NCBI GenBank assembly: GCA_964430885.1
Contig: CAYSHM010000026.1
Span: 1 to 46,505 of the forward strand
DNA from: an uncultured archaeon
Lineage (GTDB): Archaea > Thermoplasmatota > Penumbrarchaeia > JASLWR01
Direction of reading: 5' to 3'
Length of the DNA: 46,505 bases
Within the stretch, counting starts at the first letter, position 1; each line of letters opens with the position of its first letter. This document shows positions 3,934-46,505 of this stretch, piece by piece. The position numbers were made by a program, and so were the translations under genes. The notes below the pieces were generated by a model. It did not search any database, was not told where the DNA came from, and saw only the letters and a program-made list of their open reading frames with translations.

Positions 3934-6900
3934 ATGACAAGACCGAAAAATAAGAACCCTGCATTTAGAAGGCTGGCAATAATAGCTTTAGCCTTGATAA
4001 TGCTTATCGGAGGTCTCACAATGATAGTTTCGAACGAAACAAAGACCTCTGCCTTTGGGAAAAAAGCTGAAACCCTGATGGGATTTGAGCGGAGCAAAGG
4101 TACGAGAGCAGAGGAAGAAATAGCTGATTAGGTATTTGAGAACCCAAGCTTTGAGACTGGAAACTGGCAGGGATGGGAAATGGGGATACCCGGAGACACA
4201 TGTTGCTGCGGATCTAGAGTTACTACCGACCCTTATGGTTGGTGGCAGTATTACGGAAATGTTCCTGATGGCAACTATTGTGATGCTGGACCTTTTGACG
4301 GTTGCGGACCGGCCGAATATACTTTAGCCCAGGATGTCACTCTGCCAATGGGTGTCACAACTGTAGAATTTGATTGGGCTTATGATATCGATAACTGGGG
4401 CCAGCCAAGAGAAATGCGCGTTGATGTTGAACCAGTTGGCGGTGGACAGCCGCTTGAAAGATTCGTAGTTCAACAGATACAGGGCTCACAATGGAGTCAA
4501 TGGAGACATGATGTAGTTGACCTCAGTGGGTTCTTTGGTCAAACAGTAAGGATCAGTTTCGAATTTTATTGGCCCGAGTGTTACTCTGGCCCCGGATGTC
4601 ATGGTTTTGATAATGTTATATTGAAATACTTCGATGTTCCATTATATGAAGAAAGCTTCAGAACTGAACTTGACAATCCCGAATATCCCCCCTCAAATGC
4701 CTGGGATATATATTCCTCACAGGAGGAGGGGAAAAATGAAAGGGTGACCTTCTCACCGATACTTGCAGAAGTGAATCCGTTCACAAACCCGAGTTTCGAG
4801 ACCGGAAATACCAATGGCTGGATCGTGGACAATTCATGGCATGACTGGACAAACCAAAGGGTCTGGGGAGCCACCAGCAACAGCAATTGGAATTCTTATT
4901 TCGATACTGTTCCCGACGGTAATTACTATTACCATGTGGAAATGGACACGTGCTGTAACGAAAGGGATCGTCACTTTGCCATTGGTCAGGATATACAGCT
5001 GCCTGAGAACGCTGCAGAGATCCATTTCGATTATGGTTATTTTTTCGAAACATGCTGCGGATGGGGTGACCCATTCTATATAAGAGTGGACATAGAACCA
5101 TCCGGTGGAGGTAATCCTCTAGATTCGTTCATCCTGTATGAGAACAATTGGGATTCCTGGGGGTTGCACAAGGAAGATACTGCCAGTTTTGACGTCAGTA
5201 ATTTCGGAGGACAGGAGGTCAGAATTAATTTCAAGATAGTCGCCGACTGGTGGTTATATGTTTGGGGTCAATTCTCACTTGATAATTTCGTGCTGTATGA
5301 ACTTCAGGATCTGGGATTCCAGCCCTATGATGATGATCACTGCTGGAAGATGGAGAAGGACGAGACCAGGAACGGAGGTGCTAACCTCAATGAGATCACC
5401 CTTCACCTCGGACTTGTGGATGCTGGAAATGTGGAACTTTCTTTCGTGACACAGGCCTTCGGCGACGATCTTACACCCGACCCGCTCCCTGCTTCCTTTG
5501 AAGGGCATTCAAATGGAGACGGTGTTGCCATCAGCACTGACGGATTTACATGGTATACCATCTGGCAATATCAAGCCGGATTGAACGACTGGACCGAGAT
5601 CGGGCCTCTTGATATCAATGGGCTAATGGAAGCAAACGGAGGCGACATCTGCGAAACCCCCACTGATAGAGAAGATCTTTACATCAAATTCCAGCAGTAC
5701 GGTGATGGATTGATACCCGATAACGGAGGGATCGTATGGGACCTTATACATGTGGAAGGCGATGGTGACGGATGGTTCATATTCAATGTTCCCCGGATCG
5801 AGATAGATGCCACAGTAACTCCGGAATTACCTGAAATATTTGCCCAGAACCAAGGAGAACCGGATTTCTGCACAATGAAGGTCAACCTGACCACACATGG
5901 GGAAGCCGGAGAAACCGCAGCTGAAGAGGTTAGATTCACTTACACCAGACCTCAGGAACTTATTTTAGACGGAAACCCCTTGATCGAGGAGATCACATGG
6001 TCCTCTGCCGATGTACCGCCGCCCGGCGATCTGCTGGAAGCTGAGAACCATTTTGAATTGATTAACTCAGAGATCACAGCCGACGACAGCTATCTCGGGC
6101 CCCTTGGAATGTTTGACTATTCATACGAGGAATGGGACGGAGATTTTGTCAGTATCGAACAGAATGATCTAGGACTCCCTACCCTTAGGGTCATGTCCTT
6201 CGACCATGCTGAAATGTGGGGTGAATTCATCGCCAACAATGATGATCCAGGCAATATAATTTCCATGGAAGCCCTTGATGATTTCGGTCTGCCCATGCCC
6301 CCGCAGGATTTCGACAGCTGGGGCATCACCGGATTGGACGGAATAGATGTTGTGGTCGATAATGTCATTGATCCGGAAACAGGTCAGCCATTCCCACATA
6401 AAAAGAACGTGAAGATCACCGGCGGGGAGCCAGGAGACGAGGGAATCCTCACTGTCAGGCACGTTCCGGAAGATCAAACATTAGAATTTCCCATTGAATT
6501 GACCTGGGGAGAACCAACAGAAATTGATGCTTGGATGCAGGGATCCTACCAGTACGGACTTGAAGGCGTTCTTGTTGCATACATAAAGGATGAATGGGGT
6601 AATACTGTGGAGGATTATGCGGGTAGTTCACTTTATTTCCTTGACCTGCAGATACCCGATGGCGGTTCATTTGAGGTCACAGGGGATAACTTCGTGGAAT
6701 TCGACGGCGGCCAAAGAGGAGTGTGTACATTCTATATAACTCCCCGGGGTGACTGGTATGAAGAGCAGGGGGACCCTCCCTGGTATCCCGGATTCAGGCT
6801 GGCAAATACCTCTGGAAACATAGGACCCCAGCATATCTGGTTGGATGACATTATGACTGTTCACGCAGGACCGACCGTCGGGTTCCATATGGAAACAGCC

Positions 6901-7107
6901 CAGACAGAGCTCTATGCCGGAATGCCCTTCAACCTCTTTGTCCAGGCCAGAGATGAGACAAACCATAATAATATGACCTACACGGCACCGCTGATCTTTT
7001 CCCACAACTGTGATGGTACGGAAGATCTGGAACCAGTTCCCTGGAAGGATGCCGTGGGCACTGTGAGATACGACATGGTGGACGGTCAGTATGACGGCGG
7101 ACACGAT

Positions 7108-8360
7108 TTCTACTTCAACAAGTCCGGCGGATGGTCAATCGGTGTCAAATCCGGTCTGAACTACGCTATAGCCGGCAGCCTCAATATCGATGTCATGCCC
7201 GGTGAACTGAACTACCTGGCACCGACACCTGATCCCAGCGCGATCGTGGATCCCAACATTGTGGCCGACGGCAGACTGCTGATACCTGTATCAGGGGACC
7301 ATGTTTTTGATGCTATAGGTTACGATGCTTTCGGCAATCTCATTGACGGTTTCGAGATCACCGATTGGGATGTCATCGACGATATCGGCGAGATCAGCGA
7401 GGGAGAATTCCATGCTCTGGCATACTTCTCCTTTGATGATAAGACCGGAGTGAAGGAGGGCGAATATATTTTCAAGGACGGTGCTGTGAGAGTTACGGGC
7501 GTCGGACCTCTGGGCGTTGAAGTGAGCCACGATATTCTCATAAGGGTATACAATCCACTGAACATCTGGCTCGTCCCCGATGAGATCGAACCCTCCGGAA
7601 TCCTTCTGGACCATCCACTTGAACTGAAGGTCCCTGTCCATTACTACACACCATACGAGAACTTCCCGGACAACCTCCAGCTCAAGATATCCGCATATAT
7701 CATAACTGATGTGGACAACAACCTCAACGCCATCGGCGGTGAGCACCTGATCTTCACCAGCGGAGCACCCAACACCACCTTCAGGCTCATCAATCTCAAC
7801 GAGCCGGGCAATGTAGGTATTGCCACCTATTCTTTCCTGATACCCTACGAGAGCATCGCAGGTGTGATCGACCATGATCAGGAGAACAAGGACAATACCA
7901 ACTGGCTCAAGGTTGTTATAGAGGATGTGCCCGGCGGCGGAGAGATGGGCGACTTCCAGTGGAATCTGGCTGATGATGAGTCCAAAACCGAACTCTATGC
8001 AGTATATGCACCGCCTCCCAGCGAGACCCCGTCATTCGCACCTGCAATGGCCATTATGGTGCTTGCTCTTCTCGGAGGAGCAGTTGTGGCCAATCTCTAC
8101 GCAAGCAGTGGAGATAAGAAGGGACGAAAGGACGAGGACGGTGTTTCACCGGTCATTGCTATAATTCTGATGGTGGCAATTACCATCGTCCTTGCCGGTG
8201 TTCTCTGGCTCTGGGTATCGGGACTTGTGGATACGCAGAAGAGCAACGATATCGAGTATGTTGATACTGCCTGGGAAAGCCCGACGCTTCAGAACGACTA
8301 CCAGCTCATCATCGAGAATGTGAAGGATAAAGAATTCTCGGTTGAAGACCTGGAGTTCTC
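7108..8360 (+). repeat. Near-identical direct repeat, copy 1 (copy 2 at +5040)
   Basis: By eye 7108-8237 is identical to 12148-13277, with one mismatch at 8238 and identity again to about 8360. The ORF track shows identical shadow ORFs (7291..7875 and 12331..12915; 7925..8164 and 12965..13204). Confidence 0.9.
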
Positions 8361-8628
8361 CCTTATGGACGGTAACAAGGTTGACAAAAGCATGGGTCAG
8401 CACAAGGTGACTGCCATCTACGGCAAGTCCATCGATAACGAAACAATAGTTTCCTTCCATGACGGGGACCATGACGGATATCTGTCTACGGGCGACCGGT
8501 TCATCATCAAGAGCGAGGACCATGTCAACTACGACGGAACTCCCGACCCCGGTGAGGCTAGAGCTGGATACTATTTCGCTTTGAAGACCAAGGACAACGA
8601 GCTCTTCGAGGTGCAGATCGAGCAGTAA
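8026..8628 (+). other. TPSF-TM sorting-like signal + internal class III signal peptide + archaeal type IV pilin (mature part 8143-8625)
   Basis: ETPSFAPAMAIMVLALLGGAVVANLY-ASSGDKKGRKDEDG/VSPVIAIILMVAITIVLAGVLWLWVSGL, closely resembling the Haloferax PilA-type H-domain ([22 protein letters not shown]); DGDHDGYLSTGD is a DxDxDG Ca-binding-like loop. Confidence 0.85.
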
Positions 8629-8979: not shown

Positions 8980-11900
8980 GTGAAAGAAAAAAGGATGAAC
9001 ATATTTGGTAGAAATACCATATTGATTGTCATTATATCTCTGTTGATCATATCCGGATTCTCAATGGTCCTGGGTATGAAGTTCAACAATAGAGATATAA
9101 AGATCAAAGCATTGAATCCTGGAGATAGGTCTTCAGGGAAGAACACAGATGCAAGAGCCGATGATTGGCAAAGCATTTTTGCTGATGACTTCAGTGCAGG
9201 AGTGGGTGCCTGGACAACAGGCAATGAACCCATTACCGGGTCTGCACCTCAGTGCTGGGAGTGCTGCGGAAGCAGATCTTCAACATGGCAGTGGTACGCT
9301 AACAGGCATGGAGAAAGCGTTTACGGAAACCCCAATAACGGCAACATGGGTTCCGAGAACAGTTGGATCAAGACCGAAGAATTTACTGCAGGTTCCACCG
9401 GCGAACTGAAGGTGATATTCGATTCCTATTCCAACAATGAGGGCGGATTCCCTTGCTACTACGATGTTGAATGGGTTGAAATAACCACAAACGGAGGAGG
9501 TACTTGGACTCCGCTGCACGGCAACATGGGTGAACTCCACAATTACGGAGATAACACCTGGAGAAGAGGATTAACCATGCCCTATAATGTTGATCCTTAT
9601 GCAACATTCCAGATAAGGTGGAGATATGACACCTTTGATGGATGCTGCGGCCCAAATGATGGGTGGTGCATCGATAATGTTGACATCCAGGGAACTGGAC
9701 TTAGAATTGGTTTTTCCGAGACCTTCAAGAAGGATCTTTCGGATCCCGATTACTACGGTGGAAAGGCATGGTATACATATAGTAGTACTGATGAGGGGGT
9801 AAATGAGAGAGTAGTATTATCTCCAGTATTAGCAGAAGAAAACCCATTCACTAATCCGAGCTTTGAAACTGGAAATACCAATGGATGGGTCGTTGATAAT
9901 AGCTGGAATGATTGGAGCAACCAACGAGTTTGGGGTGGCACTAGCTCCAGCAATTACAATGCTTATTTCAACAGCATTCCTGATGGTAATTATTATTATT
10001 ATGTTGAAATGGACACCTGCTGTAATCCACAACCTAGATGGTACGGTATTGGTCAAGACATCCAGCTCCCTGAAAATGCCCATTCTATTGAATTCGATTA
10101 CAGTTATTATGTAGATTGGACATGCTGTCCCTACGGAGATCCTCTTGAAATAAGGGTTGACATAGAACCTGCTGGTGGAGGAAACCCGCTTGAAACCTTC
10201 ATACTTTATGAGACTGATTGGGACGTCAATATGCTTCATTCAGAAGGAGTATATGAAGTGGATATAAGTGCATATGCAGGGCAGGAGGTAAGGTTCAGCT
10301 TTGAATTTGATGCTTCTGATTGGTATTACGCTTTTTGGTGCCAGTTCGCTTTGGATAATTTCCTACTATATGTGACAGAAGATGTGGGATTCCTGGCTTA
10401 CGACGATATGTACTGCTGGAGAATGGACACCGGAGCTGAGACTAGAGATGGAGAGAACCTCAATGAACTTGTCGCTCATGTAGGTCTGCAAGACGTGGAC
10501 GTATGCAATCTCAAATTCGCAACCATGGCCTTCGGGAACGATCTTACACCCGATCCTATGCCCGCTTCATTCCAGGGACATCACGAATCGGATGGTATCG
10601 CAGTGTCAACCGATAATGAGACCTGGTACAGGCTGTGGCAGTACGAGAACGATCTAGATGATTGGGTGGAAAAAGGTCCATTTGATATCATTGCATTACT
10701 GGATGCTAACGGTGTGGAAACCTGCGACTCTCCGAGTACCAACGAGGATCTTTGGATCAAGTTCCAGCAGTATGACGACGGGGGAATCCCCGATTCGGGC
10801 ATTATATGGGATTTCTTGGATTGTGAAGCAAATGAGGACGCTGAAGGAATAACCCTTGATGTTCCCCGAATATGGGTGCACACGGAAGTATCACCTGATC
10901 CTCCTATATATTATGCTATGGACCAAGGTGATCCCGACTTGGGTACTGTGAACGTTACCCTTTTCGGCCTGGGAGATGAAGAAGAAGGAACTCCGGGGAC
11001 ATCAATAGATCTAGATTATACTCAAGCACCAGGGATTGTAGTGGACGGAACCCTTGATTGGTCAGCTCCAAGCATGGCTCCAGGAGATATCAATCTTGTA
11101 ACAGCAGATGTCACATCGATCCAGGGATTCCATGGTGACATCGGACCCATTGCACTTCAATACGAGGAATGGGATGGTGACATCTTCGAAACTGTTCTCG
11201 ATATGCCCATATTCAGAATAATGGCTTTCGAGTATGCAGAGATAGAGGGTTCAATAATCAAGAACAACGGTGCTGACCCAGGCGATCCTGGTTCTGAGAT
11301 TACACTGGTATCCTTCGATGATCAGGACCCCGCTCTAGAAATGCCCCAGCAGACATTCACCGATTGGACCCTTACAGGTCTTGACGACTGGTCCTTTGAG
11401 GACGTTATCGATCCCGAAACCGGTCAGCCCTTTCCCCACAAGAAGATAGTGAAGAGCACCGGAGGGGAGATCGGCGACGAGATAACTATCACCGCCATCC
11501 ATCAGCCTACAGAGATCCAGGTTTCATTCGATCTTGAACTCACAACTGGTCCCGCAACCACATTGGAACTTGTTCCGGCAGGCGCACTTCAGTATGGACT
11601 GGAGGGGGTTCTGGTTGTATATATTAAAGATGACTACGACAATGTCATCGAGGATTTCAGCGGCGAGACCATCTATTTCGTGGATATGCAGGAAGGGGAC
11701 GGCGGAGCATTCGATGTCACCGGTGATGATTTCCTCGTATTCGACGGCGGCCAAAGAGGAATGGGGACCTTCTACCTCACGCCCCGTGGAACCTGGTATG
11801 AAGAGCAGGGAGATCCTCCCTGGTATCCCGGTTTCAGACTTCAGAACACCACTGGAAACCCCGGCCCACAGGACCTTTGGCTTGAGGACATATTGACAGT

Positions 11901-13911: not shown

Positions 13912-16900
13912 ATGAAAGAAAATGGAGATACAAAAAATAATATCCGAAGGATATTGCTGATAATCGCTATCAGTGCACTGGTGCTCACAGGCATCGCTAT
14001 ACTGGTAGGGATTCTTTTTGAAGGAGATAGTACAGAGACCGTAACGGTAGAGGAAGTGGTTTTCCTTCCCTACCAGAATGAAAAGACCGTTGACGCCCAG
14101 ACCATGAGCTACGGGATGGCTGCTGTTTACAGTGACGGGAGCATAGGAAACCTCCCTGATGAGCCGTCTGACATGGCTGTAGATCTCGTCCTAGAAGAAG
14201 AGGTCCAAGTTCCCGAGAGGAAACGTGCTGTCGGCGATACCTATTCCTTCCAGTACACCGGAAATGATCAGAACTGGGAAGTACCTGAAGCAGGAACCTA
14301 CCTGGTGGAGATATGGGGAGCAGGAGGCGCAAGCAATGGCGGAACCCATGGAGGTAACGGCGGTGCTGTGACTGCAGAGGTTGAATTGGATGACGGCACT
14401 TATACCATAGTTGTCGGTGGTCATGGAGCACCCTCTAACTCCCACCGTTCAGGTAACGGTGCCGGAGGTTTCTCAGGAATTCTGCTGAACGGTGACCATA
14501 TCATATCGGCCGGTGGTGGTGGCGGTGCAGGGTCCCACAGCGGCAGTGGCCATGGTGGTAATGGAGGCTATCCCGGTGAAAAAGGTACTGATGGTCCTGG
14601 AGGATCTGGCGGTAACGGAGGAAGTATCGGCGATACACCCCAGGGTGGTGCTGGCGGTCTTGGACATTCGGACAATGGTGACCCAGGAACTGCCCAGGGC
14701 GGTGGACAGGGAGGAAGCGGTGGATCAAGTGCAGGTGCTGGTGGCGGCGGTGGCGGATACGGAACCGCTGCCGGTGCATCCGGTGGCTGCTACAGCTGCG
14801 GAGGTTGTGCAGGTGCAGGCGGTTATGGAGGCGGAGGAGGCGGAGGTGGAGGTGGATGCGGTGGCGGACCTACCCGATATTCCGGTGCTGGCGGAGGCGG
14901 AGGTGGATTCCGCGGTGGAGATGGCGGTAGGTGTTATAACTATTATGCTGGATACGGTGGCGGTGGAGGAGGCGGAGGGTGCAACTGGGCCGATCCCGAT
15001 TTCTGCGAAGAAGTTCAGCATACATCCGGAGGGGGCGCTGCACCAATGCAGAGCGGTAAGATCGAAATGGAGTACCTTGGTGGAGGCCAGAACTCAGATT
15101 ACGGAATGGAATACGAAGAAGGAACTGGAGAGACATATGAGTTCACAAATTGCGGTCGAGCCGGTCAGTATGGTCCAAGCCAAGGTCAGATAAACAATGA
15201 ATATAACGGAACAAACCTGCAGGGGCAGGTCACCTGGGTCTATAATGGCATCCAGCGCTGGACCGTCCCTGAGACCAATACCTATACAATCACAACACTT
15301 GGTGCAGAAGGCGGTTTCCAGAACGGGCAGAACAATGGTGGTTACGGAGCCAAAATGAAGGGCGACTTCTATCTTGAGCAGGGAACTGTACTGAAGATCT
15401 TAGTTGGACAAAAGGGTGAGAATGGTAATGGTTCCGGAGGTGGTGGAGGTGGCTCCTATGTCACACTGAATAATAATGATCCCTTGATAATTTCTGGTGG
15501 AGGTGGAGGAGGCCAATGGGGACAAGCTATTCAATCATACCAGCATGGGACCGTTGACCAGAGCGGTCAGAGCACAAATCACGTGAATGGTGGGACAAAT
15601 GGTTCCGGTGGTCAGGGCGATTATGGTGGCGGATGCTGTGGAGGTGGAGGTCTGACCGGTAACGGAGGCGGAGGAAGCTATGGTTCCCCAGGTATAGCTT
15701 TTGTCAATGGTGGAAACGGAGGTAACACAAGCTACCAATCCCGCGGTGGGTTCGGAGGTGGAGGAGGTACTCACGGCAACTCAGGCGGTGGCGGAGGAGG
15801 AGGAGGTTACTCCGGTGGCGCGGGAGGTTACCATAATGATACATGGGGTAATGGAGGAGGAGGAGGTTCCTACAACGATGGTGACAACCAGGACAACGAG
15901 ACGGGAGTCAACCAGGGACATGGTTTAGTGACCATTGCAGTAGCACCTGTACCTTTAGCCCGGTATTACAAGGAAACATTCACCGAACCCTTTTTAGGTG
16001 AGGATGCCAGTGAATTCGGTGTTTCATGGTATGATAACAGCGAATTGGAATCGGCAAGGAACCAGAGGATTGTTACAGAACCCGAGAGGATCGAAGCTGC
16101 AAACTATACGTTCACTAATTGTGGATCTACTGGTAGATACGGCCCAAGCCAGGCAAATGTAAATTCTGAATATTCAGGAACAAATCTCGATGGCAATGTA
16201 ACTGTCGGCCAACAGGGATACCAGGAATGGATAGTTCCTGAAACAGCCACCTATACAATTAAAACATATGGTGCTAAAGGAGGAAGCGGCAGTTCAAAAA
16301 CTGGCGGAAAAGGTGCAATGATGAGCGGTGAATTTGAATTGATCCAGGGAGATAAGCTAATTATTCTGGTAGGACAGAAAGGTATTGATACACAGGGGTC
16401 CGGCTGCGGCTGCGCTTCCGGTGGTGGCGGAACCTATGTTGCCATTGGTAATAATTATTCCAGTGCCGATCCCCTGATCGTTGCTGGAGCCGGTGGCGGT
16501 GCTTCGGACTATTCTGGAAGAGATGGTAATCCCGGTGTTACAACAGAATGGGGTTCCAATTATGCTGGAACATGCTGCGGAGGACAAAACGGAAACGGGG
16601 GCACAGGAGGCAACGGCGGACATGGCGCTGGTTTCTTCGGTGATGCAGGTTGGAGTAATTATGTCTATACAGTGGCCAAATCATACAGGAACGGAGGTGT
16701 TGGCGGTGATTATAGCTATAACACTGATGGTGGATTTGGAGGGGGAGGGGCATCCCATACATGCTGTGAACCTGGTGCAGGCGGAGGATACAGCGGCGGT
16801 TCTGCAGATTGGAGCGGTTATAGATTGGCCGGAGGCGGTGGATCCTACAATGACGGTGCTAACCAAGATAACCAAGAGGGCGCAAATAATGGACATGGCA

Positions 16901-19900
16901 TGGTAGAGATAATTATTTATGAAGACCTGGATGATCCAGGATTCGATGCATATGATCAAGAAGAACGCGGACCATACTGCTGGGTGATGGACAATCCTGA
17001 TCCGGTTGTTAGAGATACAAATCTCAATGAGATGGTCCTGCACATCGGTCTGGATGCAGGTGAAGAAGATGTCACGGATCTGACATTTGAATTTGCGACA
17101 GCTGTTTACGGTAATTGCGAGATCCTCCCGCCCAGTCTCTCCAACGGAGATGATATGGACTACGATGGTATACTGGTGAGTACTGATGGCGAGGATTGGT
17201 ACAAACTGTGGTCACCTGTCATAGCAGAAGAGAATTGGACGATGCACGAAGGGCTCGATATCCTGGCGGCATTACCTCCCAACAGTGTTGATCCCCAGGA
17301 AGATCTGTTTATGAAATTCCTGCAGTTCGGAAGCGGTACCTTCCCGGATGAGTGTATAATTTGGGATGAGATGACCTTAAGGGCGAATCCTGAAGTTGAA
17401 TTCATATTCGAAGTTCCATCTTTGGACTATCAATTGACCACCGATCCCGAAGATCCCTTCAGGATATATGCCGAAGGTCAGGGCGATCCCGATGTTGCCA
17501 CGGTAACTTTCAGCCTAGATGGAATCGGCGGTGCGGTAAACCCAGGAATGACAAGAGCGGATCCGATATTATACGAGTTCACCACCTGCGGGCAGACGGG
17601 TAGATACGGTCCTTCACAGGCTCAGGTCAATAACGCTTACTCTGGAACAACACTGGATGGTGCGGTAACATCAAATAACGGTATTCAGACATGGACTGTC
17701 CCCGACAGCGGTCTTTATATTCTAGAGACCTGGGGTGCTAAAGGAGGTGATGCTAATCATCAGGGCGGTAATGGAGCCAGGATGAGAGGTGAATTCGAAT
17801 TGGAAGAGGGGGATACTCTGAAAATACTTATTGGCCAGATGGGTATCGGAGGCGGCAGTGGATGCAGTAATGCATGCGGAGGCGGTGGAGGAACCTATGT
17901 GACATACGACGACAATACGCCACTAATAATAGCAGGTGGCGGTTCAGGTGATGACGGAGCTTCAAACGGATATGATGGCCGTATAGAGGAAAGCGGTGGG
18001 CAGGGTGAGAGCGGAGCTCCCGGTGGAACCAATGGTAACGGAGGAGAGGATGCGAACAGCTATGGCTGTGGATCCGGAGGTGGCGGCGGTTTGCTCACCG
18101 ATGGAGGTTCCGACGGCTGTTATGGTCATCAGAGAGGATTTGCCTTTGTAAATGGTGGAACCGGAGGCAGTTCCAGCTATGGTGGAAGATACGGAGGATT
18201 CGGCGGCGGTGCTGGAACTCACAGGAATAATACCGGTGGTGGAGCAGGTGGCGGTTATTCCGGCGGTGGTGCCCCGAGACATGGCTGCAATTATGCTGGA
18301 GGCGGCGGCGGTTCCTACAATGCTGGTGAAAACCCCGACAATGAAGCGGGTGCCAATTCCGATCATGGAAAGGTAGAGATCTCCTATATAGGTGGTGGAG
18401 ATCCAGCAGCCACAGAGGTAAGGTTCCTTTATGAGAGAGCAGACGGCATCGTCGTGAATGATGATCCATTTATCACTGAGATAGCATGGTCCTCACTTGA
18501 TGAATACCCAGATGATGATGCTGTTTTCATCAGCGATGAGTTCGAAATCGAGTTTACAATATCCAATCCTCAAGGATTCGCTGGTGAGATAGGAACATTT
18601 TCTCTTCAGTATATCACATGGGACAACGAGGTTGTGGATATTGAGTTGGAATCACCTTACCTCCGGATCCAGGAATTCTCATATGCCGAGTTCAGTGAGG
18701 ACTCTATGTTCATAGCCAATAACTATGGACAGGTCCCAGGCGGTGAGAACCTTATTACCCTTGTCGCATATGATGATCTGGAACCCTCTGGTGAAATGCC
18801 GCCTCAACAATACCACGGCTGGCAGGTTGACCTGCCCACTGTAGACAGCTTCCAGCTGATCGATACACCATCGAGTCACCAGAAATACCTGCATATTACT
18901 GGCGGAGAGCCAGGAGATACTGGTATGATCACGGTGACGCACGGACCCGGAAGAGGAACTGGTGATACATTTGAGTTACCCATCACTCTGACTTCCGGAC
19001 CTGCAACCACCGCTGATGTCACTACTATGGACCCATATATGTACAGTATGACCGACATATTGACGGTAGCAGTGCAGGATGACTATGGCAATGAAGCTGT
19101 GGACTGGACTGGGAAGATGTACATCAGTCTGCTAGCTGGTGAGGTCGAATTCTCAGAGGAAGTCGAGATTGAGGGCGACGGCGGTGCATATGACGGCTGG
19201 CTCTACTATGAGTTCACTCCGGCGGATCGTGCACTACATACCTTCTTCATAACCCCGTGGACCTACATGGGTGACGGCGATACCATCATTCATTTCGAAA
19301 CGGTAACGGGCATCAATGCTGATGTATCACTAACTGTGGATGCAGGACCTGTCAGTGATCTTGTGGTCACACCGGATTGGGATGAGATGGGTGTACTACC
19401 CAGGAATCCAGCCTATATCTATGCTGGTGAAACCCTTTATCTGGATGTCCAGGCAGTGGATATGGGTAACCATGTATCGACCTCCTATAATGCACCGATA
19501 ATAATAGGACATAATTCAGACGGCACAGGTACTTTGGAACCTGAACCATGGTTCACTGAAGAATCCAATGTGATCATGGAGATGGTCGATGGAGATATAA
19601 CTGCCCAGGATCAGTTGACAGAGTTCATTTTCTACAAAGCAACAGGAGATCTGGATATAACTGTGAAATCTGGTATCAACCACGCTATTGCGGGTAAACT
19701 CGACCTTGAGGTCAGAGCTGGCCCCTTGGCAGAATTGACCCCGATTCCTGATCCTGCTGTTATGGATGCTCTGCATGCTGCAGACGGAAGAATGCTTATA
19801 CCCGTCAGCGGAACCCAAACCTTTGATGTTCTCGGATACGACGAATGGGGTAATCCGGTAATGGACCTTTCCATTACCGAATGGGATGTAGACGAACCTC

Positions 19901-21150
19901 TTGGAATGATGGATGATGATGAGTTCCAGGCTGTTGATTACTTCAGTCTCAAGGATGGGCCGGGAATAGAACCTGGAGAGTATTCCTATCTCGATGGATT
20001 TGTCTATATAACAGCTGAAGATGATGATGAATATCTTGAAGGTGAAGTTATCCTGAACGTACCAATAAGGGTCTTCAATCGATTGAATGTCTGGATTGTC
20101 GAGGAAGAGATCGGAGCAACAGAATTCCTTCTGGATACACCGTTCGAACTGAGAGTACCAGTTCATTACAAGACACCTGCGAATTCTTTCCCGGACAACC
20201 TCCAGCTGCTGGTCAAGTGTACCATCTACCATGAGGTAAATGTGCAGGGTATTGAACAGGGTACCGGACACGTTATCCATACCAGCGGAGCACCCAATGG
20301 TACCTTTAGACTGCTGAACCTCATAGGTGAGAAGGATGGTATCAAAGAGTACAGTGTGCTTATTCCCTATGAAGGCATGGCAAGTGCTCTGAACTACGAT
20401 ATGGAGAATGGAAACACGCTGAATTATCTCAAAGTAGAGATATTGGATGTGCCAGGTGGCGCAGACATGGGTGATTTCCAGTGGAACGAGGAAGATGATT
20501 CTGCATTGACCGAACTTCACGCTGTAGCTACACCGCCTGCCAGCGAGACCCCTTCATTCGCACCTGCCATGGCCCTAATGGTGCTTGCCCTTCTGGGTGG
20601 AGCTGTTGTGGCCAACCTCTACTCAACCAAAGGAAAGAAGAAAGGACGAAAGGACGAGGACGGTGTTTCACCGGTCATTGCTATCATTCTCATGGTGGCC
20701 ATAACCATCGTCCTTGCCGGTGTTCTCTGGCTGTGGGTATCCGGATTGGTTGACACGCAGAAGAGCAATGATATCGAGTATGTGGACACCGCTTGGGAAA
20801 GCCTAACACTTCAGAACGATTACCAGCTCATCATCGAGAACGTGAAGGATAAAGAATTCTCGGTTGAGGACCTGGAGTTCTCTCTAATGGATGGGAACAA
20901 GGTGGATAAGAGCATGGGCCAGCACAAGGTGACAGCCATCTACGGCAAGTCTATCGACAACGAGACCATCGTGTCCTTCCATGACGGCGACCATGACGGA
21001 TATCTGTCCACGGGTGATAGGTTCATCATCAAGAGTGAGGACCATGTGAACTATGACGGAAGTGCGGATCCTGGTGAGGCCAGGGCTGGATACTATTTCG
21101 CTTTGAAGACCAAGGACAACGAGCTCTTTGAAGTGCAGATCGAGCAGTAG
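13912..21150 (+). CDS. Adhesin-pilin polyprotein paralog 3 (2412 aa) with four ALK/LTK-type glycine-rich domains
   Basis: Gly-rich domains at about 14233-15075, 15130-15940, 16102-16920 and 17566-18390 with the pattern FTxCG..G..GP.Q..GIQ.W.VP..Y.I...GA.GG..GA.M.G.F.L..L.ILVGQ.G; TPSF at 20548; mature pilin 20665-21147. Confidence 0.9.
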   Translation: MKENGDTKNNIRRILLIIAISALVLTGIAILVGILFEGDSTETVTVEEVVFLPYQNEKTVDAQTMSYGMAAVYSDGSIGNLPDEPSDMAVDLVLEEEVQVPERKRAVGDTYSFQYTGNDQNWEVPEAGTYLVEIWGAGGASNGGTHGGNGGAVTAEVELDDGTYTIVVGGHGAPSNSHRSGNGAGGFSGILLNGDHIISAGGGGGAGSHSGSGHGGNGGYPGEKGTDGPGGSGGNGGSIGDTPQGGAGGLGHSDNGDPGTAQGGGQGGSGGSSAGAGGGGGGYGTAAGASGGCYSCGGCAGAGGYGGGGGGGGGGCGGGPTRYSGAGGGGGGFRGGDGGRCYNYYAGYGGGGGGGGCNWADPDFCEEVQHTSGGGAAPMQSGKIEMEYLGGGQNSDYGMEYEEGTGETYEFTNCGRAGQYGPSQGQINNEYNGTNLQGQVTWVYNGIQRWTVPETNTYTITTLGAEGGFQNGQNNGGYGAKMKGDFYLEQGTVLKILVGQKGENGNGSGGGGGGSYVTLNNNDPLIISGGGGGGQWGQAIQSYQHGTVDQSGQSTNHVNGGTNGSGGQGDYGGGCCGGGGLTGNGGGGSYGSPGIAFVNGGNGGNTSYQSRGGFGGGGGTHGNSGGGGGGGGYSGGAGGYHNDTWGNGGGGGSYNDGDNQDNETGVNQGHGLVTIAVAPVPLARYYKETFTEPFLGEDASEFGVSWYDNSELESARNQRIVTEPERIEAANYTFTNCGSTGRYGPSQANVNSEYSGTNLDGNVTVGQQGYQEWIVPETATYTIKTYGAKGGSGSSKTGGKGAMMSGEFELIQGDKLIILVGQKGIDTQGSGCGCASGGGGTYVAIGNNYSSADPLIVAGAGGGASDYSGRDGNPGVTTEWGSNYAGTCCGGQNGNGGTGGNGGHGAGFFGDAGWSNYVYTVAKSYRNGGVGGDYSYNTDGGFGGGGASHTCCEPGAGGGYSGGSADWSGYRLAGGGGSYNDGANQDNQEGANNGHGMVEIIIYEDLDDPGFDAYDQEERGPYCWVMDNPDPVVRDTNLNEMVLHIGLDAGEEDVTDLTFEFATAVYGNCEILPPSLSNGDDMDYDGILVSTDGEDWYKLWSPVIAEENWTMHEGLDILAALPPNSVDPQEDLFMKFLQFGSGTFPDECIIWDEMTLRANPEVEFIFEVPSLDYQLTTDPEDPFRIYAEGQGDPDVATVTFSLDGIGGAVNPGMTRADPILYEFTTCGQTGRYGPSQAQVNNAYSGTTLDGAVTSNNGIQTWTVPDSGLYILETWGAKGGDANHQGGNGARMRGEFELEEGDTLKILIGQMGIGGGSGCSNACGGGGGTYVTYDDNTPLIIAGGGSGDDGASNGYDGRIEESGGQGESGAPGGTNGNGGEDANSYGCGSGGGGGLLTDGGSDGCYGHQRGFAFVNGGTGGSSSYGGRYGGFGGGAGTHRNNTGGGAGGGYSGGGAPRHGCNYAGGGGGSYNAGENPDNEAGANSDHGKVEISYIGGGDPAATEVRFLYERADGIVVNDDPFITEIAWSSLDEYPDDDAVFISDEFEIEFTISNPQGFAGEIGTFSLQYITWDNEVVDIELESPYLRIQEFSYAEFSEDSMFIANNYGQVPGGENLITLVAYDDLEPSGEMPPQQYHGWQVDLPTVDSFQLIDTPSSHQKYLHITGGEPGDTGMITVTHGPGRGTGDTFELPITLTSGPATTADVTTMDPYMYSMTDILTVAVQDDYGNEAVDWTGKMYISLLAGEVEFSEEVEIEGDGGAYDGWLYYEFTPADRALHTFFITPWTYMGDGDTIIHFETVTGINADVSLTVDAGPVSDLVVTPDWDEMGVLPRNPAYIYAGETLYLDVQAVDMGNHVSTSYNAPIIIGHNSDGTGTLEPEPWFTEESNVIMEMVDGDITAQDQLTEFIFYKATGDLDITVKSGINHAIAGKLDLEVRAGPLAELTPIPDPAVMDALHAADGRMLIPVSGTQTFDVLGYDEWGNPVMDLSITEWDVDEPLGMMDDDEFQAVDYFSLKDGPGIEPGEYSYLDGFVYITAEDDDEYLEGEVILNVPIRVFNRLNVWIVEEEIGATEFLLDTPFELRVPVHYKTPANSFPDNLQLLVKCTIYHEVNVQGIEQGTGHVIHTSGAPNGTFRLLNLIGEKDGIKEYSVLIPYEGMASALNYDMENGNTLNYLKVEILDVPGGADMGDFQWNEEDDSALTELHAVATPPASETPSFAPAMALMVLALLGGAVVANLYSTKGKKKGRKDEDGVSPVIAIILMVAITIVLAGVLWLWVSGLVDTQKSNDIEYVDTAWESLTLQNDYQLIIENVKDKEFSVEDLEFSLMDGNKVDKSMGQHKVTAIYGKSIDNETIVSFHDGDHDGYLSTGDRFIIKSEDHVNYDGSADPGEARAGYYFALKTKDNELFEVQIEQ

Positions 21151-42470: not shown

Positions 42471-42655
42471 ATTATTGAATTCGAATATATCAATTTTTCA
42501 TTCCAAATGAATCCCTGTGTAATTCACTGATAGACCTGCACATCCCTATATCATCAAATAGATACTTCTAAATGCACAAAGGCATCATTTTTTTCACAAA
42601 ACCTATATACAAAATGGACTTATTCAGGGTGAGAACGAAATAGAAGGTGATAACA

Positions 42656-42814
42656 ATGTCAAAGGGTACTCCTTCAATGGGAAAACGTAACAAGAAGACC
42701 CACATTCGATGCAGAAGATGCGGGAACAATGCATACCACGCTAGAAAAAGAGAATGTGCATCCTGCGGGTTCGGTGTTACATCCAAGAGAAGGGAATTCA
42801 ACTGGATTAAATAA
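42656..42814 (+). CDS. rpl37e: 50S ribosomal protein L37e (52 aa)
   Basis: Hand translation [52 protein letters not shown]; C4 zinc finger; SD GGTGA at 42646-42650. Below the ORF-track length cutoff. Confidence 0.97.
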
Positions 42815-43030
42815 TCTTGAAATACTTAATTATCTCATGGTTTGAGAAACAGATTGTTTAATCCCAAACCTTCCTTTTCATTTCTTATTATTTTTAACCA
42901 AAGGGTTAGCTTTTTAACAACCTTTTCTTTTATAGATACGCGGATTTTTGGACAACTCTGTTCAAGGTCATTATCATTCACAACATCCAAGGTGAATGAT
43001 AAAAATCCTAAATTAAAGGACGTGTATGTT

Positions 43031-44128
43031 ATGAACGAGCAGATAGACCCTAGGATATATGAGAAGAGATGGGACAGGATAATCAAAGAACTTGAAAAAA
43101 ATGAAAAGGATGCTTTTATCGTATCTAACCCAGGAAATGTCAGATACCTTTCTTGTGCTCACATACCATCCTTTCCGCTTCTGAATCACATTGTTGTAGA
43201 AAGGGACGGAAAAGTAACCGGTATTACATCATCCCTTGAAAAGTTCAGAGCTTTAGAAGAAGCCCATGTTGATGAACTTCTGATCTTCACGACATATCCT
43301 GGCATCCATTCTGACGGCAAAACCCCTATTGGAACTTTGAAGAAATTGATAAAGGAAAAGGGATGGAAGAACGCCTTGATAGACAACCCAGTCAACACCC
43401 GATTGGTTAAAAAGGATACCTCAGGTTTGATCACAAAGATGAGAATGAGAAAGGACCCGCTTGAATTGAAGTTCATTCAAACCGCTGCTGAGATAACTGA
43501 TAGAGGAGCGGAGGAACTTCCGGAGCTTATTGACCCCGGGCTTTCTGAGAGACAGATCGCCAAGGAACTGAACCACATTCTCAGGGACGATGAGCGGGTG
43601 CAGACTGAAGCCTTTGAGACAATAATTGCTAGTGGTACAAAATCTGCCTTCTCACATCACGATGTTACAGATAGAAAGATAGAAAAAGGGGATGTAGTGA
43701 TCTGTGATTTCGGTGTTTATGTCAACGGATACTGTTCTGACTGTACAAGAACATTCTTTGCCGGAAATCCATCTGATGAAATGACGGACATCTATGAATT
43801 GGTACTGGAAGGGCAAGAATTGGGAATAGAGAGCGCGGTAAAAGGAAAAACCTACGGCAGTATAGACGAGAATATCAGGGATCTTTTTAAACAGACCGAT
43901 CATCACAAATATTTCGTTCATTCCACCGGTCACGGCATTGGACTGGAGGTACACGAAGCACCCAATGGTATCAGGATCGGAATGAAAACGAAGATCGAAG
44001 AGGACCACATATTCACTGTAGAACCTGGAATATATATACCAGGGCAGGGAGGGGTGAGGATCGAGGATGATATACTTATCAAGGATGGAAAACCCGTAAG
44101 CCTCACAAAATCCCCCAAAACATTGTGA
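43031..44128 (+). CDS. Xaa-Pro peptidase (M24B, prolidase/aminopeptidase P family), about 365 aa
   Basis: Creatinase-N-like N-terminus (SNPGNVRYLS), DFGVYVNGYCSDCTRT, HSTGHGIGLEVHEAP, TVEPGIY, GGVRIEDD. Start moved to ATG 43031. Confidence 0.95.
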   Translation: MNEQIDPRIYEKRWDRIIKELEKNEKDAFIVSNPGNVRYLSCAHIPSFPLLNHIVVERDGKVTGITSSLEKFRALEEAHVDELLIFTTYPGIHSDGKTPIGTLKKLIKEKGWKNALIDNPVNTRLVKKDTSGLITKMRMRKDPLELKFIQTAAEITDRGAEELPELIDPGLSERQIAKELNHILRDDERVQTEAFETIIASGTKSAFSHHDVTDRKIEKGDVVICDFGVYVNGYCSDCTRTFFAGNPSDEMTDIYELVLEGQELGIESAVKGKTYGSIDENIRDLFKQTDHHKYFVHSTGHGIGLEVHEAPNGIRIGMKTKIEEDHIFTVEPGIYIPGQGGVRIEDDILIKDGKPVSLTKSPKTL

Positions 44129-44221
44129 ATATTATCTTCATTGATAATTTTAACAATAAAAAAGGGTAATATGCACAATTTTCTATCTTACCATATACAT
44201 ACCGATCTATGCGGTAAAAAT

Positions 44222-45001
44222 CTATTGTTCATTATTGTAGGTATAATAAGTTGATCGTGTCTTTCCCTGCTTCAATATCTTACCCATTTCAATCAGTTCT
44301 CTAAGGTCGATCTGAAGAACGCGTCTAGATACCCCGGGAAAAATTCGTTCAATATCGTTGATCTTGAGCTTCTTACCCCTATTGGCAAAGAAAAAGAGTG
44401 AGATCTTTCCCCTCCGTTTCTCCAGCTTGCCCTTCCCTTCATCCTTTTTTCTCCGCCTTCTCCTGCTGACAGTTTGTATGGTATGTTTACGTGGAGATTC
44501 CTTCTTATAGGATATTATCTTATCTTGGCTGCCCGGACCGCCATCACCTACTGGACCTCCTGAAACGGTTTCAAGATCAGGATCGAATAGCGAGGGAACC
44601 TTAGCAGCAACTGAGGAACGAATAACCGTCTTCTCTGAGACCTTCCGGGATTTAACTGGTTTTTTCTTTGTACCTTTTCTCGGAGAGCGGACCCTACTTC
44701 CCGATACAAAGTTTTCCGGAACTGATTTTTTGGACATAATATCAATTACATATTCTGGCATGCTAGGCAATATTGAGGTTCTTATGGAAAAACCTCCGGA
44801 AAAATCTGATGTTCTATTGGCCAATACCAGAGCAGATTTGACTGCTGATGGTTTACCGGTAAATACTATTGTTACCAATCCTCCGCCTAGAATGTACCTT
44901 CCCAATATCTTGATCTTTACAGATCTGGAAATGGAATCCACGGCCATAAAGGCATCCAGAAGTCCACGCGTTTCAATAATTCCTACAGTTTTGCCTTTCA
45001 T
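44222..45001 (-). CDS. BMC shell-domain protein fused through a basic linker to a C-terminal winged HTH
   Basis: N-terminal VGIIETRGLLDAFMAVD..GGGLVTIVFTGKPSAVKSAL matches the EutM/PduA/CcmK pattern; Lys/Arg-rich linker; C-terminal INDIERIFPGVSRRVLQIDLRELIEMGKILKQGKTRSTYY is DeoR-like wHTH. Confidence 0.85.
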   Translation of the reverse strand: MKGKTVGIIETRGLLDAFMAVDSISRSVKIKILGRYILGGGLVTIVFTGKPSAVKSALVLANRTSDFSGGFSIRTSILPSMPEYVIDIMSKKSVPENFVSGSRVRSPRKGTKKKPVKSRKVSEKTVIRSSVAAKVPSLFDPDLETVSGGPVGDGGPGSQDKIISYKKESPRKHTIQTVSRRRRRKKDEGKGKLEKRRGKISLFFFANRGKKLKINDIERIFPGVSRRVLQIDLRELIEMGKILKQGKTRSTYYTYNNEQ

Positions 45002-45044
45002 TACTACACTTCCGTTCTATTCCAATAATTTCCAATCCTTCATT

Positions 45045-45581
45045 TTAATAGTATATCATTTGGTCGATCTGGTCACTTTTCGCCATGATAGTCGAATCAA
45101 TAATGTCAACATTATGGTCATCCCTCAGTTTAGCAAAATAGTCCTCTATCATGTATATCTTGCCGGATAGGAAGATAATACCAGTCATTTTCTCATAATT
45201 GAAATAAAAACCGACAACCTTCACATTGGTGTTTTTCAAGGCCGCATCCAAACACAATACCGCCGGGGTGTATCCTTTCACATCAATTACCCCCAGGTCT
45301 GCCCTGGGATGAAGGGTTTTTGGTTTCGTTATCCATTTAAGCAATCGTGGATGAGGGGAATGTATAATTGAAGCTTTGTAAAATAGCCCTTTCCTTTGAA
45401 AATCAATACTATCCAAGAGGACTGGAAGTTCAGTTCTGCTTCCAGATAGAACTGAAATAAAGTGTGCAGAGTCAGTATAACGGTTATATTCAATCTTTAC
45501 CTCACCTCTTCTGGAAATCAGAGACATAATGAAAAATCCGGATGATGCCGTATCCGCTTCAATTATCGCAACACTATTCAA
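45045..45581 (-). CDS. Divergent tandem-BMC (BMC-T, PduT-like) shell protein
   Basis: Two BMC-like halves: SVAIIEADTASSG..FISVLSG..IIHSPHP and LGVIDVKGYTPAVLCLDAALKNTNVKVV; 178 aa; TTG start after GAGG; lies between two other BMC genes. Confidence 0.7.
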   Translation of the reverse strand: MNSVAIIEADTASSGFFIMSLISRRGEVKIEYNRYTDSAHFISVLSGSRTELPVLLDSIDFQRKGLFYKASIIHSPHPRLLKWITKPKTLHPRADLGVIDVKGYTPAVLCLDAALKNTNVKVVGFYFNYEKMTGIIFLSGKIYMIEDYFAKLRDDHNVDIIDSTIMAKSDQIDQMIYY

Positions 45582-45723
45582 TACAATCGCCTCTGCGTCT
45601 ACAATTTCATTTTCATTGGGATCTAGGACTTATCGGATGGAGCAATCAGCCGATCAAAGGATCTGGATACTTATCGGGTTTGAAACAGGAGGGAAAAACC
45701 CGTTTCTCACGATGAAGGTCTAA

Positions 45724-45999
45724 TCAGTTTTCGTAAATCATTTCCCCGTGGATATCCAAAGTATCCAGTATGCCAATTATTGTTGCATCGATCATGGGTG
45801 ATTTACCTACGGATTGACTCACTAGAACCACATTTCCCAGAGAGGCGCCTATACGGTCCTCACATACCATTGATGTCCCGTCAGGTCTCATATTCATGGG
45901 ATTCAAAGGTAGAACCAGTAGGTATTTACTTCCTTCAAGACCCTTTGCCTGGATTGTGCTTGTCGGAGTTCCAACAACTTTACATATCTTCATACTCAT
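45724..45999 (-). CDS. EutN/CcmL family microcompartment vertex (BMC-P) protein
   Basis: MKICKVVGTPTST..LEGSKYLLV.P..VCEDRIGASLGNVVLVSQ..IDATIIGILD. The real start may be ATG 45993. Confidence 0.9.
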   Translation of the reverse strand: MSMKICKVVGTPTSTIQAKGLEGSKYLLVLPLNPMNMRPDGTSMVCEDRIGASLGNVVLVSQSVGKSPMIDATIIGILDTLDIHGEMIYEN

Positions 46000-46505
46000 T
46001 CCTCTTCACAATAGGACATTGAACATATCCCAAAAAGCTTAATTTTAATTTCGTAATAATCCTCATTGATTTAGGACACTTTTTATTAGCCGGTCATCGA
46101 AATTACGATAGACATTTAATTAAATTTGCAGATGTAGAGAAATAATAGATATTACCAAATAAACTGGAGATTATTCCACTGTTATATTTATAATAAAAAT
46201 ATATGATTATAATATAAAAATGTTCCTTTTGGAATTCAGGATTTGTTAAAATAGAAGTAAACCTGGTTTTTGTTTATCATTTAGCCAACAAGATAAAAAG
46301 TTAAAAAGTATCGGAAAGAAAAATATTGCTTTTATTAATAGGGACATGAATGATTTTCAGTAACTATTTTAAAAATCGGTAAAATATTCAAGCCCCAAAG
46401 CAAATGAAAAATATAAATTAAATATCAACAAAATTTAATTAAAGCTACTTATGAGCCCGCCTGAGTAATCCAATATCAAACCCCTGCTCATCCCTCCCCG
46501 CCTAT

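Follow-up and report, generated by a model that had tools for sequence, protein, structure and literature searches.

Why would an archaeal genome carry genes for all three classes of bacterial microcompartment (BMC) shell protein with no enzyme beside them? The question is raised by the window analysed here, a complete contig of 46,505 bp (C26) from a metagenome bin of JASLWR01 Thermoplasmatota (3.13 Mb in 44 contigs, completeness 91.6%, contamination 1.4%). At 44222-45999 on the minus strand it holds three co-oriented ORFs encoding a BMC-P, a divergent tandem BMC-T and a BMC-H that is followed by a linker and a winged helix. An earlier reading of the sequence alone had proposed a horizontally acquired and possibly repurposed minimal shell, a satellite of a BMC locus elsewhere, or a decaying remnant. 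Of these three options the satellite fits best; acquisition by transfer at some point also stands, the trio may be a repurposed minimal shell, and decay does not hold. With moderate confidence, we propose that the trio is a separately transcribed, enzyme-less accessory shell module of a sugar-phosphate (SPU)-type archaeal microcompartment (AMC) whose enzymes and bulk shell are encoded on a second contig, C6.

The ORFs, Pfam and fold models agree on the P, T and H shell types that the sequence-only reading had assigned, and all three products pass the Pfam cut-offs in scans with PF00936 and PF03319 (Table 1). We compared the window genome (G000) with three further members of its family (G001, G002 and G003, of which G001 and G003 are congeneric and the G003 bin is 88% complete) and with G005, an 82%-complete genome from another family. 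The P protein covers 83 of 83 PF03319 profile positions and by its sequence belongs to the pentamer fold family. Its orthologs, present in all three other family genomes at 57-60% identity, start at the third residue of the 91-aa ORF, and the true start is probably 45993. The proteins had also been called basic, which is right for H (pI 10.65, net charge +33 over the whole protein) and wrong for the acidic P (pI 5.1) and the near-neutral T (pI 8.0).

Table 1. Features of the shell gene cluster and its surroundings in the window
Feature	Position	Strand	Basis
H-winged helix fusion gene, 259 aa	44222..45001	-	PF00936, residues 6-65, 37.1 bits vs 24.5
BMC-H domain, aa 1-92, non-basal hexamer type	44726..45001	-	PF00936; Foldseek
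Basic disordered linker, ~aa 93-189	44435..44725	-	pLDDT <50 at residues 93-185, few single positions excepted
C-terminal winged helix-turn-helix, aa 190-255	44237..44434	-	modelled alpha-beta-alpha-alpha-beta-beta, pLDDT 85-93
Divergent tandem BMC-T (single-layer T^s-like), 178 aa	45045..45581	-	PF00936, 29.7 bits vs 24.5
BMC-P (EutN/CcmL) vertex-protein gene, 91 aa	45724..45999	-	PF03319, 54.6 bits vs cut-off 25
AT-rich region 5' of P, presumed promoter of cluster	46000..46452	-	25% G+C
Terminal multi-copy repeat ending contig C26	46453..46505	.	depth 150-186 vs 15-20, runs X1, X2
M24 Xaa-Pro-type peptidase, convergent with H	42842..44128	+	PF00557, 216 bits
Ribosomal protein L37e, archaeal/eukaryotic marker, 1.4 kb from cluster	42647..42814	+	PF01907, 81 bits

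A scan of the whole genome found seven BMC-domain and four EutN matches, most of them in a single operon on contig C6. The operon opens with a 209-aa BMC protein, an unknown 263-aa protein, a P gene, an aldehyde dehydrogenase (AldDH) and a PduS/RnfC-like NADH dehydrogenase, continues with a tandem T carrying a CPGK motif, a P with a lysine-rich tail, TPI and RPI (RpiB), and closes with another P, a 97-aa BMC-H with KAAK and PRPH and a 479-aa DeoC-type aldolase (DERA). P, H, AldDH and DERA, which together mark a complete SPU-type locus, are all present on C6 (three P genes, H, PF00171 and PF01791) and are not all present in the trio; a PduL domain was not found in the operon. With the operon on C6 and shell genes only on C26, the trio has the layout of the satellite BMC loci described by Sutter et al. 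(2021; PMC8217296), which lie apart from a main locus and hold shell genes alone or together with enzymes. The absence of an adjacent cargo enzyme, pointed out earlier, therefore holds on C26, which terminates 500 bp past P in a multi-copy repeat and encodes no enzyme in the stretch from the M24 gene to its end, and fails genome-wide, where cargo and further BMC genes stand together on C6. Genes for aIF2-alpha and a PAC2 proteasome-assembly homolog lie ~6-7 kb downstream of the operon, so that a second contig ties shell genes to archaeal information genes.

The DERA gene (L026:269-1708) has its DeoC match only at residues 270-469, with an N-terminal ~260 aa that has no Pfam match. On its 3' side lies a gene whose 619-aa product weakly matches DHH phosphoesterases (L013:622-2481), and a DHH-family gene adjoins the operon in G001 (C119) and G002 (C50) as well, at 36-37% identity; it may be part of the operon locus and possibly provide a nucleic-acid-processing step. 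Two genes of the G001 locus, the PduS-like one (C119:3887-5203) and the DHH-family one (9955-11655), each contain one in-frame TAA, which could reflect sequencing error, pseudogenisation or recoding.

The view of BMCs as bacterial organelles has been overtaken by a preprint of November 2025 (PMC12747264), the only literature on JASLWR01 that we found. Its main text documents shell genes for 66 of 111 Hodarchaeales genomes, for JASLWR01 Thermoplasmatota and for SpSt-1190, attributes them to transfer from Myxococcota, and puts its emphasis on Asgard archaea and enzyme-bearing operons. For JASLWR01 it remarks on one H fewer, the lack of a phosphotransacylase and an extra T^dp; for Hodarchaeales it describes the DERA as a flavoprotein fusion. 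The C6 operon resembles these SPU-type AMC operons in its P triplet, T^s with CPGK, K-rich-tailed P2, AldDH, PduS-like MNdh, DERA, RPI and TPI, and, as the preprint states for JASLWR01, in its single canonical H and in the lack of a detected PduL domain; its 209-aa BMC protein may be the extra T. The trio differs from them in its place on a second contig, its lack of enzymes, its divergent P and T and its H-winged helix fusion. Loci without AldDH and DERA are classed in the preprint as incomplete and assigned to Supplementary Table 2; that table and Supplementary Fig. 1 may list this cluster. The main text contains no wording on satellites, HTH, helix-turn-helix, winged domains, regulators or additional shells.

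Trio and operon co-occur in all three family genomes in which the operon region is assembled (G000, G001 and G002). In G003 we found the trio only, and the operon shell genes, AldDH and the PduS-like gene were not found in that bin. We rejected G003 as a case of a trio without an operon, since the DHH neighbour and the essential aIF2-alpha were not found there either, which marks the region as unassembled; the upstream flank is not syntenic, and no empty site could be demonstrated.

The proposed role as an accessory module turns on what kinds of shell protein the trio encodes. The BMC domain of H matches CsoS1, CcmK, PduA and EutM in Foldseek (target-normalised TM 0.74-0.85, rmsd ~2 A, with one chain in the list at TM 0.65). 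According to the main text of Sutter et al. (PMC8217296), basal, facet-forming hexamers carry KAAN and (P/A)RPH. The window H has RSVK at the first site and PSMP at the second; its trio orthologs have KGAN or KGSN, and PNIS, PNMS, PNLS or PHIS, respectively. Identity to the 97-aa operon H is 35% over 51 aa. The missing (P/A)RPH, together with RSVK and PSMP, marks H as a specialised hexamer and not the bulk tile. Beyond this domain, the linker (aa 93-195, 103 aa) holds 28 K+R against 11 D+E (pI 10.8). Ortholog linkers are shorter (67-69 aa) and nearly neutral (net +1 to +4), so a basic linker is found in G000 only. The class of the C-terminal winged helix was assigned from Pfam and a PDB profile: an HxlR-type HTH scores 16.9 bits, under its cut-off of 20.8, and the PDB profile matches 8uqu (E 0.0019), a Fido-domain protein, in its C-terminal part. 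Foldseek with the whole H model returned BMC-H chains only and no winged-helix match.

The T protein is more divergent still. Its PF00936 match is confined to the second half, and TIGR02526 (PduT) aligns with residues 3-171 at 37 bits, against a cut-off of 250, while solved PduT-like chains align over the full length in PDB profile matches. An AF2 model built from four orthologs (mean pLDDT 77.5, pTM 0.75) shows two BMC folds in succession, modelled as two beta-alpha-beta-beta-alpha-beta units, and its best Foldseek matches are BMC-T trimers (TMq 0.67-0.83; Haliangium BMC-T1 0.79-0.83, PduT 0.69). Three copies modelled together gave an ipSAE of 0.84 compared to 0.00 for the best of three controls, with at least 85% of contacts shared between runs and partner pLDDT of at least 85; 20 of 30 solved pairs reach the mark applied, as does 1 of 23 single chains. 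Since BMC-T trimers have been solved, the score may stem from resemblance to them and is not proof of binding. The only cysteine of T, at position 110, falls within a modelled helix (104-116) outside the pore loop, and the pore cysteine of the PduT and AMC-T^s Fe-S subtype (a CPGK-type motif) was not found in the satellite T. Identity to the operon T^s is 19%. A specialised hexamer and a T without a pore cysteine are the features from which we read the trio as an accessory shell module.

Relatives of T are few. Among 4,444 candidates, seven reached E <=0.001, all of them orthologs; four of these seven have no precomputed Pfam domain, and one is listed at NCBI as a hypothetical protein of a Candidatus Thermoplasmatota archaeon. 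The window T itself appears in the database as a 160-aa product (P0276) in which the TTG start is skipped and the first strand of the BMC fold is lost. The miscalled start and the missing Pfam matches imply that domain-based mining tends to miss the T gene.

How would such a module act? On our proposal, P, T and H would enter or modify a shell built mainly from the basal hexamer encoded on C6, with P as vertex protein, T as an alternative pseudohexamer and H as a hexamer with a basic arm that ends in a winged helix. The satellite T could provide a pore without the Fe-S site of the operon T^s, and H could display a putative nucleic-acid-binding arm on the shell, which would lie on the outside if the termini face the cytosol. 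Such an arm might supply the deoxyribose-phosphate pathway with captured DNA or RNA, or it might anchor the organelle on the nucleoid, which carboxysomes use for their positioning. Within the AMC system itself, the preprint (main text, PMC12747264) shows shell assembly and reports that the K/R-rich disordered tail of AMC-P2 binds DNA and RNA, for which it proposes a DNA-scavenging role; shell appendages that bind nucleic acid have a precedent in this tail. The window linker resembles that tail as a basic disordered appendage of a shell protein, and differs from it in being on a hexamer and not a pentamer, in ending in a folded winged helix and in being basic in G000 only. A second parallel is offered by the bacterial satellite loci of CcmK3/K4 (Sutter et al., main text, PMC8217296), which are likewise distal and shell-only and are proposed to tune shell permeability under separate regulation. 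The trio differs from these in holding H, T and P together and in the fusion of its H to a DNA-binding domain.

Several points weigh against this proposal. The cytosolic orientation of the C-terminal arm is presumed from published shell structures, in which BMC-H termini face the cytosol. Judged from its interface motifs, H is a doubtful candidate for canonical tiling with basal hexamers. Divergence of T and H far outpaces that of the adjacent genes: identity across genera is 21-26% for T and 40-42% for H, against 64-66% for M24. In G005 the operon is present and the trio was not found (82% complete), from which it follows that the operon does not require the trio. Finally, Sutter et al. (main text, PMC8217296) call a locus with H and P a 'main' locus, and the trio fits that description.

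The fusion protein also suggests a different explanation, in which the winged helix is the point of the protein and the shell is not. We searched 1.84 billion representative sequences with an H-winged helix profile and obtained 4,611 hits, nearly all of them ordinary BMC proteins. Among the best 150, ten were inspected besides two self-hits, chosen for long coverage or for two matched stretches. The architecture of BMC domain, linker and winged helix was seen in the two G000 proteins and in P0004, P0005 (a fragment), P0006 and P0025. P0038, P0051, P0083, P0092 and P0146 were rejected since their C-terminal motif differs, and P0109 for its low-complexity tail. A word-indexed search with the H alignment, whose list was crowded with ordinary BMC proteins, yielded three proteins among 8,000 scored candidates. 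The fusion is thus rare, with about six clusters, all tiny, among the inspected hits of the profile search. In the literature we found no BMC-H fused to a DNA-binding or winged-helix domain beyond reviews and the works cited here.

The closest known relative in design is EutK of the ethanolamine microcompartment, which also places a C-terminal HTH suggestive of nucleic-acid binding after a BMC domain, and whose HTH still has no known role according to a review (main text, PMC5821096). The EutK model NF012010 aligns with the BMC part of the window H only (residues 5-60; 16.7 bits against 218), and the EutK C-terminal domain is not among the PDB profile matches of H. The window protein differs further in the ~95-aa linker between its domains and in its archaeal host with an SPU-type organelle.

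A family profile recovered exactly two full-length H-winged helix copies in each of the four family genomes, one in the trio and one standing alone, and did not find the fusion in G005 (82% complete). The stand-alone paralog of G000 (L014:7679-8704, contig C3; 341 aa) combines a BMC domain with two HTH regions (HTH_DeoR 23.9 bits), and its neighbours are not conserved in relatives. We also noted a heptamer, ATCGAAT/ATTCGAT, that recurs 5' of P in the relatives: three times in G003 (L015:7615-7862), three in G001 (L016:7509-7808) and twice in G002 (L017:4302-4673), out of totals of seven, eight and six, respectively, per 12-16 kb locus.

These findings leave some room for H-winged helix as chiefly a regulator that binds DNA, or a nucleoid-associated protein, with the BMC hexamer as its oligomerisation scaffold; it would control, for example, the microcompartment genes, with P and T as co-regulated spares; we consider this unlikely, yet the strongest of the rivals. 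No other part of the protein is as well conserved or as well modelled as the winged helix, HTH_DeoR is matched by five of the ten family members, (P/A)RPH is found in none of the ten, the stand-alone copy lies away from shell genes in all four genomes, and the heptamer clusters 5' of P in G001, G003 and G002. But the heptamer has no occurrence 5' of P in the window, G001 and G003 are close kin, and no operator was identified. Trio orthologs of H retain KGAN or KGSN at the KAAN site, and linkage of H with P and T in four of four genomes has the look of a shell set.

A further alternative is that the trio forms a small shell of its own, apart from the SPU organelle, with nucleic acid on or in it. 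Here the relations of P are informative. The satellite P shares 24-34% identity with the three operon P proteins; taken with the values for T (19%) and H (35% over 51 aa), this means that the satellite proteins are not recent copies of operon genes. Excluding the window's own protein, the satellite P group comprises six 90%-identity clusters at 112-185 bits, below which come bacterial EutN proteins at no more than 71 bits and 29-42% identity. A tree of 56 rows and 96 columns, with 28 of its 53 inner branches open, groups the satellite P proteins in a single clade (SH-aLRT 99) with a long stem, apart from all three operon P genes; the tree does not discriminate between an origin from the operon P1 class and a separate arrival, and leaves the deeper placement open. 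The window P sits on a long branch (0.54, against at most 0.14 for the others). A contig scan with the P alignment confirmed five loci among 76 pattern matches, and tblastn did not find H-winged helix at the three bacterial loci among those five.

The separate P clade, the presence of all three tile classes (with the 'main' locus fit noted above) and the charge of +33 combined with a winged helix would suit an independent shell. Set against these are the lack of a basal-type hexamer in the trio and of any conserved cargo gene beside it, the neighbours past P differing among relatives; the G003 trio-only case is uninformative, given that the aIF2-alpha that flanks the operon in G001 and G002 was not found there. 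We regard an independent shell as improbable. We rate no higher a bolder variant, in which a recruited BMC hexamer would scaffold DNA-binding proteins of a new class, each genome having two paralogs. With its own P and T, such a protein would build a shell or platform that associates with nucleic acid, separate from the metabolic organelle and used in the manner of a capsid or as a tether to the nucleoid.

A further rival is decay of the trio. The order L37e-M24-H-T-P recurs in all three other family genomes, which represent two further genera, and the search of related archaeal genomes thus found the trio in each of them, with all three genes intact in four of four. For G001 and G003, the sole unsaturated pair (dS of the others was not computable or exceeded 1.2, and the G000 branch is not covered), dN/dS is 0.029 for P, 0.226 for T and 0.073 for H, beside 0.088 for M24 and 0.027 for L37e. 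These ratios, far from the value near 1 that the earlier reading had named as a sign against it, indicate that the trio genes are maintained by purifying selection, T being the least constrained. EutN genes occur in five of 41 relatives (G000 included) and in five of 401 sampled genomes of the phylum, namely all four of the family and the only sampled genome of one other family. Within the family, the trio is vertically inherited. A decaying remnant of a transferred BMC locus could explain the 21-26% identity of T between genera, the long branch of the window P and the lost interface motifs of H. With intact ORFs throughout, dN/dS of 0.03-0.23 in the one pair and confident fold models, including T as a trimer, it is a very improbable account.

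The same synteny speaks to the integrity of the assembly, as do metagenome contigs. In the marine runs X1 and X2, single 10.7-kb contigs cover 42600-46481 with no differences. X1 and X2 do not count as independent evidence, since they may be the samples from which the genome came; X3 and X4 cover the stretch only in part, and at low depth. A misassembly between peptidase and shell genes is rejected on the basis of these spanning contigs and the three other assemblies. At the far end, the first 30 bases of the 53-bp tail repeat also occur at the ends of contigs C22, C24, C29, C33 and C40, and the ~10x depth of the tail together with these shared bases indicates that the assembly breaks at a repeat and does not contain a false join. 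The setting is archaeal, not a chimera: a bacterial contaminant or chimeric contig, for which the 44-contig bin and the position of the cluster at a contig end might be cited, has a negligible probability in view of the synteny of L37e, M24, H, T and P in three other assemblies, the X1 and X2 contigs and the position of the C6 operon ~6 kb from aIF2-alpha and PAC2.

Archaeal BMC genes are no longer new, given PMC12747264. New, as far as the searched main texts show, are the shell-only cluster, the family of hexamer-linker-winged helix proteins, of which each genome has two paralogs, and the cryptic T, whose divergence is so great that Pfam and NCBI annotation mostly overlook it. A Thermoplasmatota family thus keeps a second, shell-only gene set besides the operon, under selection, and the hexamer fused to a winged helix is an architecture seen in only a handful of protein clusters among those inspected. 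If the fusion does put a DNA-binding arm on the shell, it would lend independent support to organelles that feed on nucleic acid and would provide a natural means of attaching engineered shells to DNA. If H-winged helix is instead a regulator, it would represent a new kind of transcription-factor scaffold.

The surroundings of the cluster agree with what had been described from the sequence: an rpl37e gene at 1.4 kb, a convergent peptidase on the other side of H, an AT-rich gap beyond P and archaeal pilin domains on the same contig. The L37e protein is 78-84% identical and syntenic in all three relatives. Relatives of the M24 peptidase align from residue 59-64 at 63-66% identity, and its true start probably lies near 43031. 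Past P, the relatives differ: G003 encodes a sulfotransferase there, whereas the G002 gene is for a VWA-HTH protein. In the window, the AT-rich region contains no ORF of at least 50 aa lying wholly inside it; a sigma-70/terminator scan, whose model is not applicable to archaeal promoters, found sites no more often than in shuffles, and Rfam found no family anywhere in the window.

In X1 and X2 the tail repeat sits in a 1,582-bp contig at ~10x genome depth, which suggests a multi-copy mobile element. The head of C26 (1-30) is likewise a repeat, found again at the ends of C2, C10, C27 and C32. The Pilin_N domains lie near the C-termini of giant ORFs on the plus strand (4180-8628, residues 1320-1393 of 1482; 13912-21150, residues 2250-2324 of 2412), compared with the N-terminal position expected for a class III signal peptide, and five giant ORFs of this kind follow one another on the contig.

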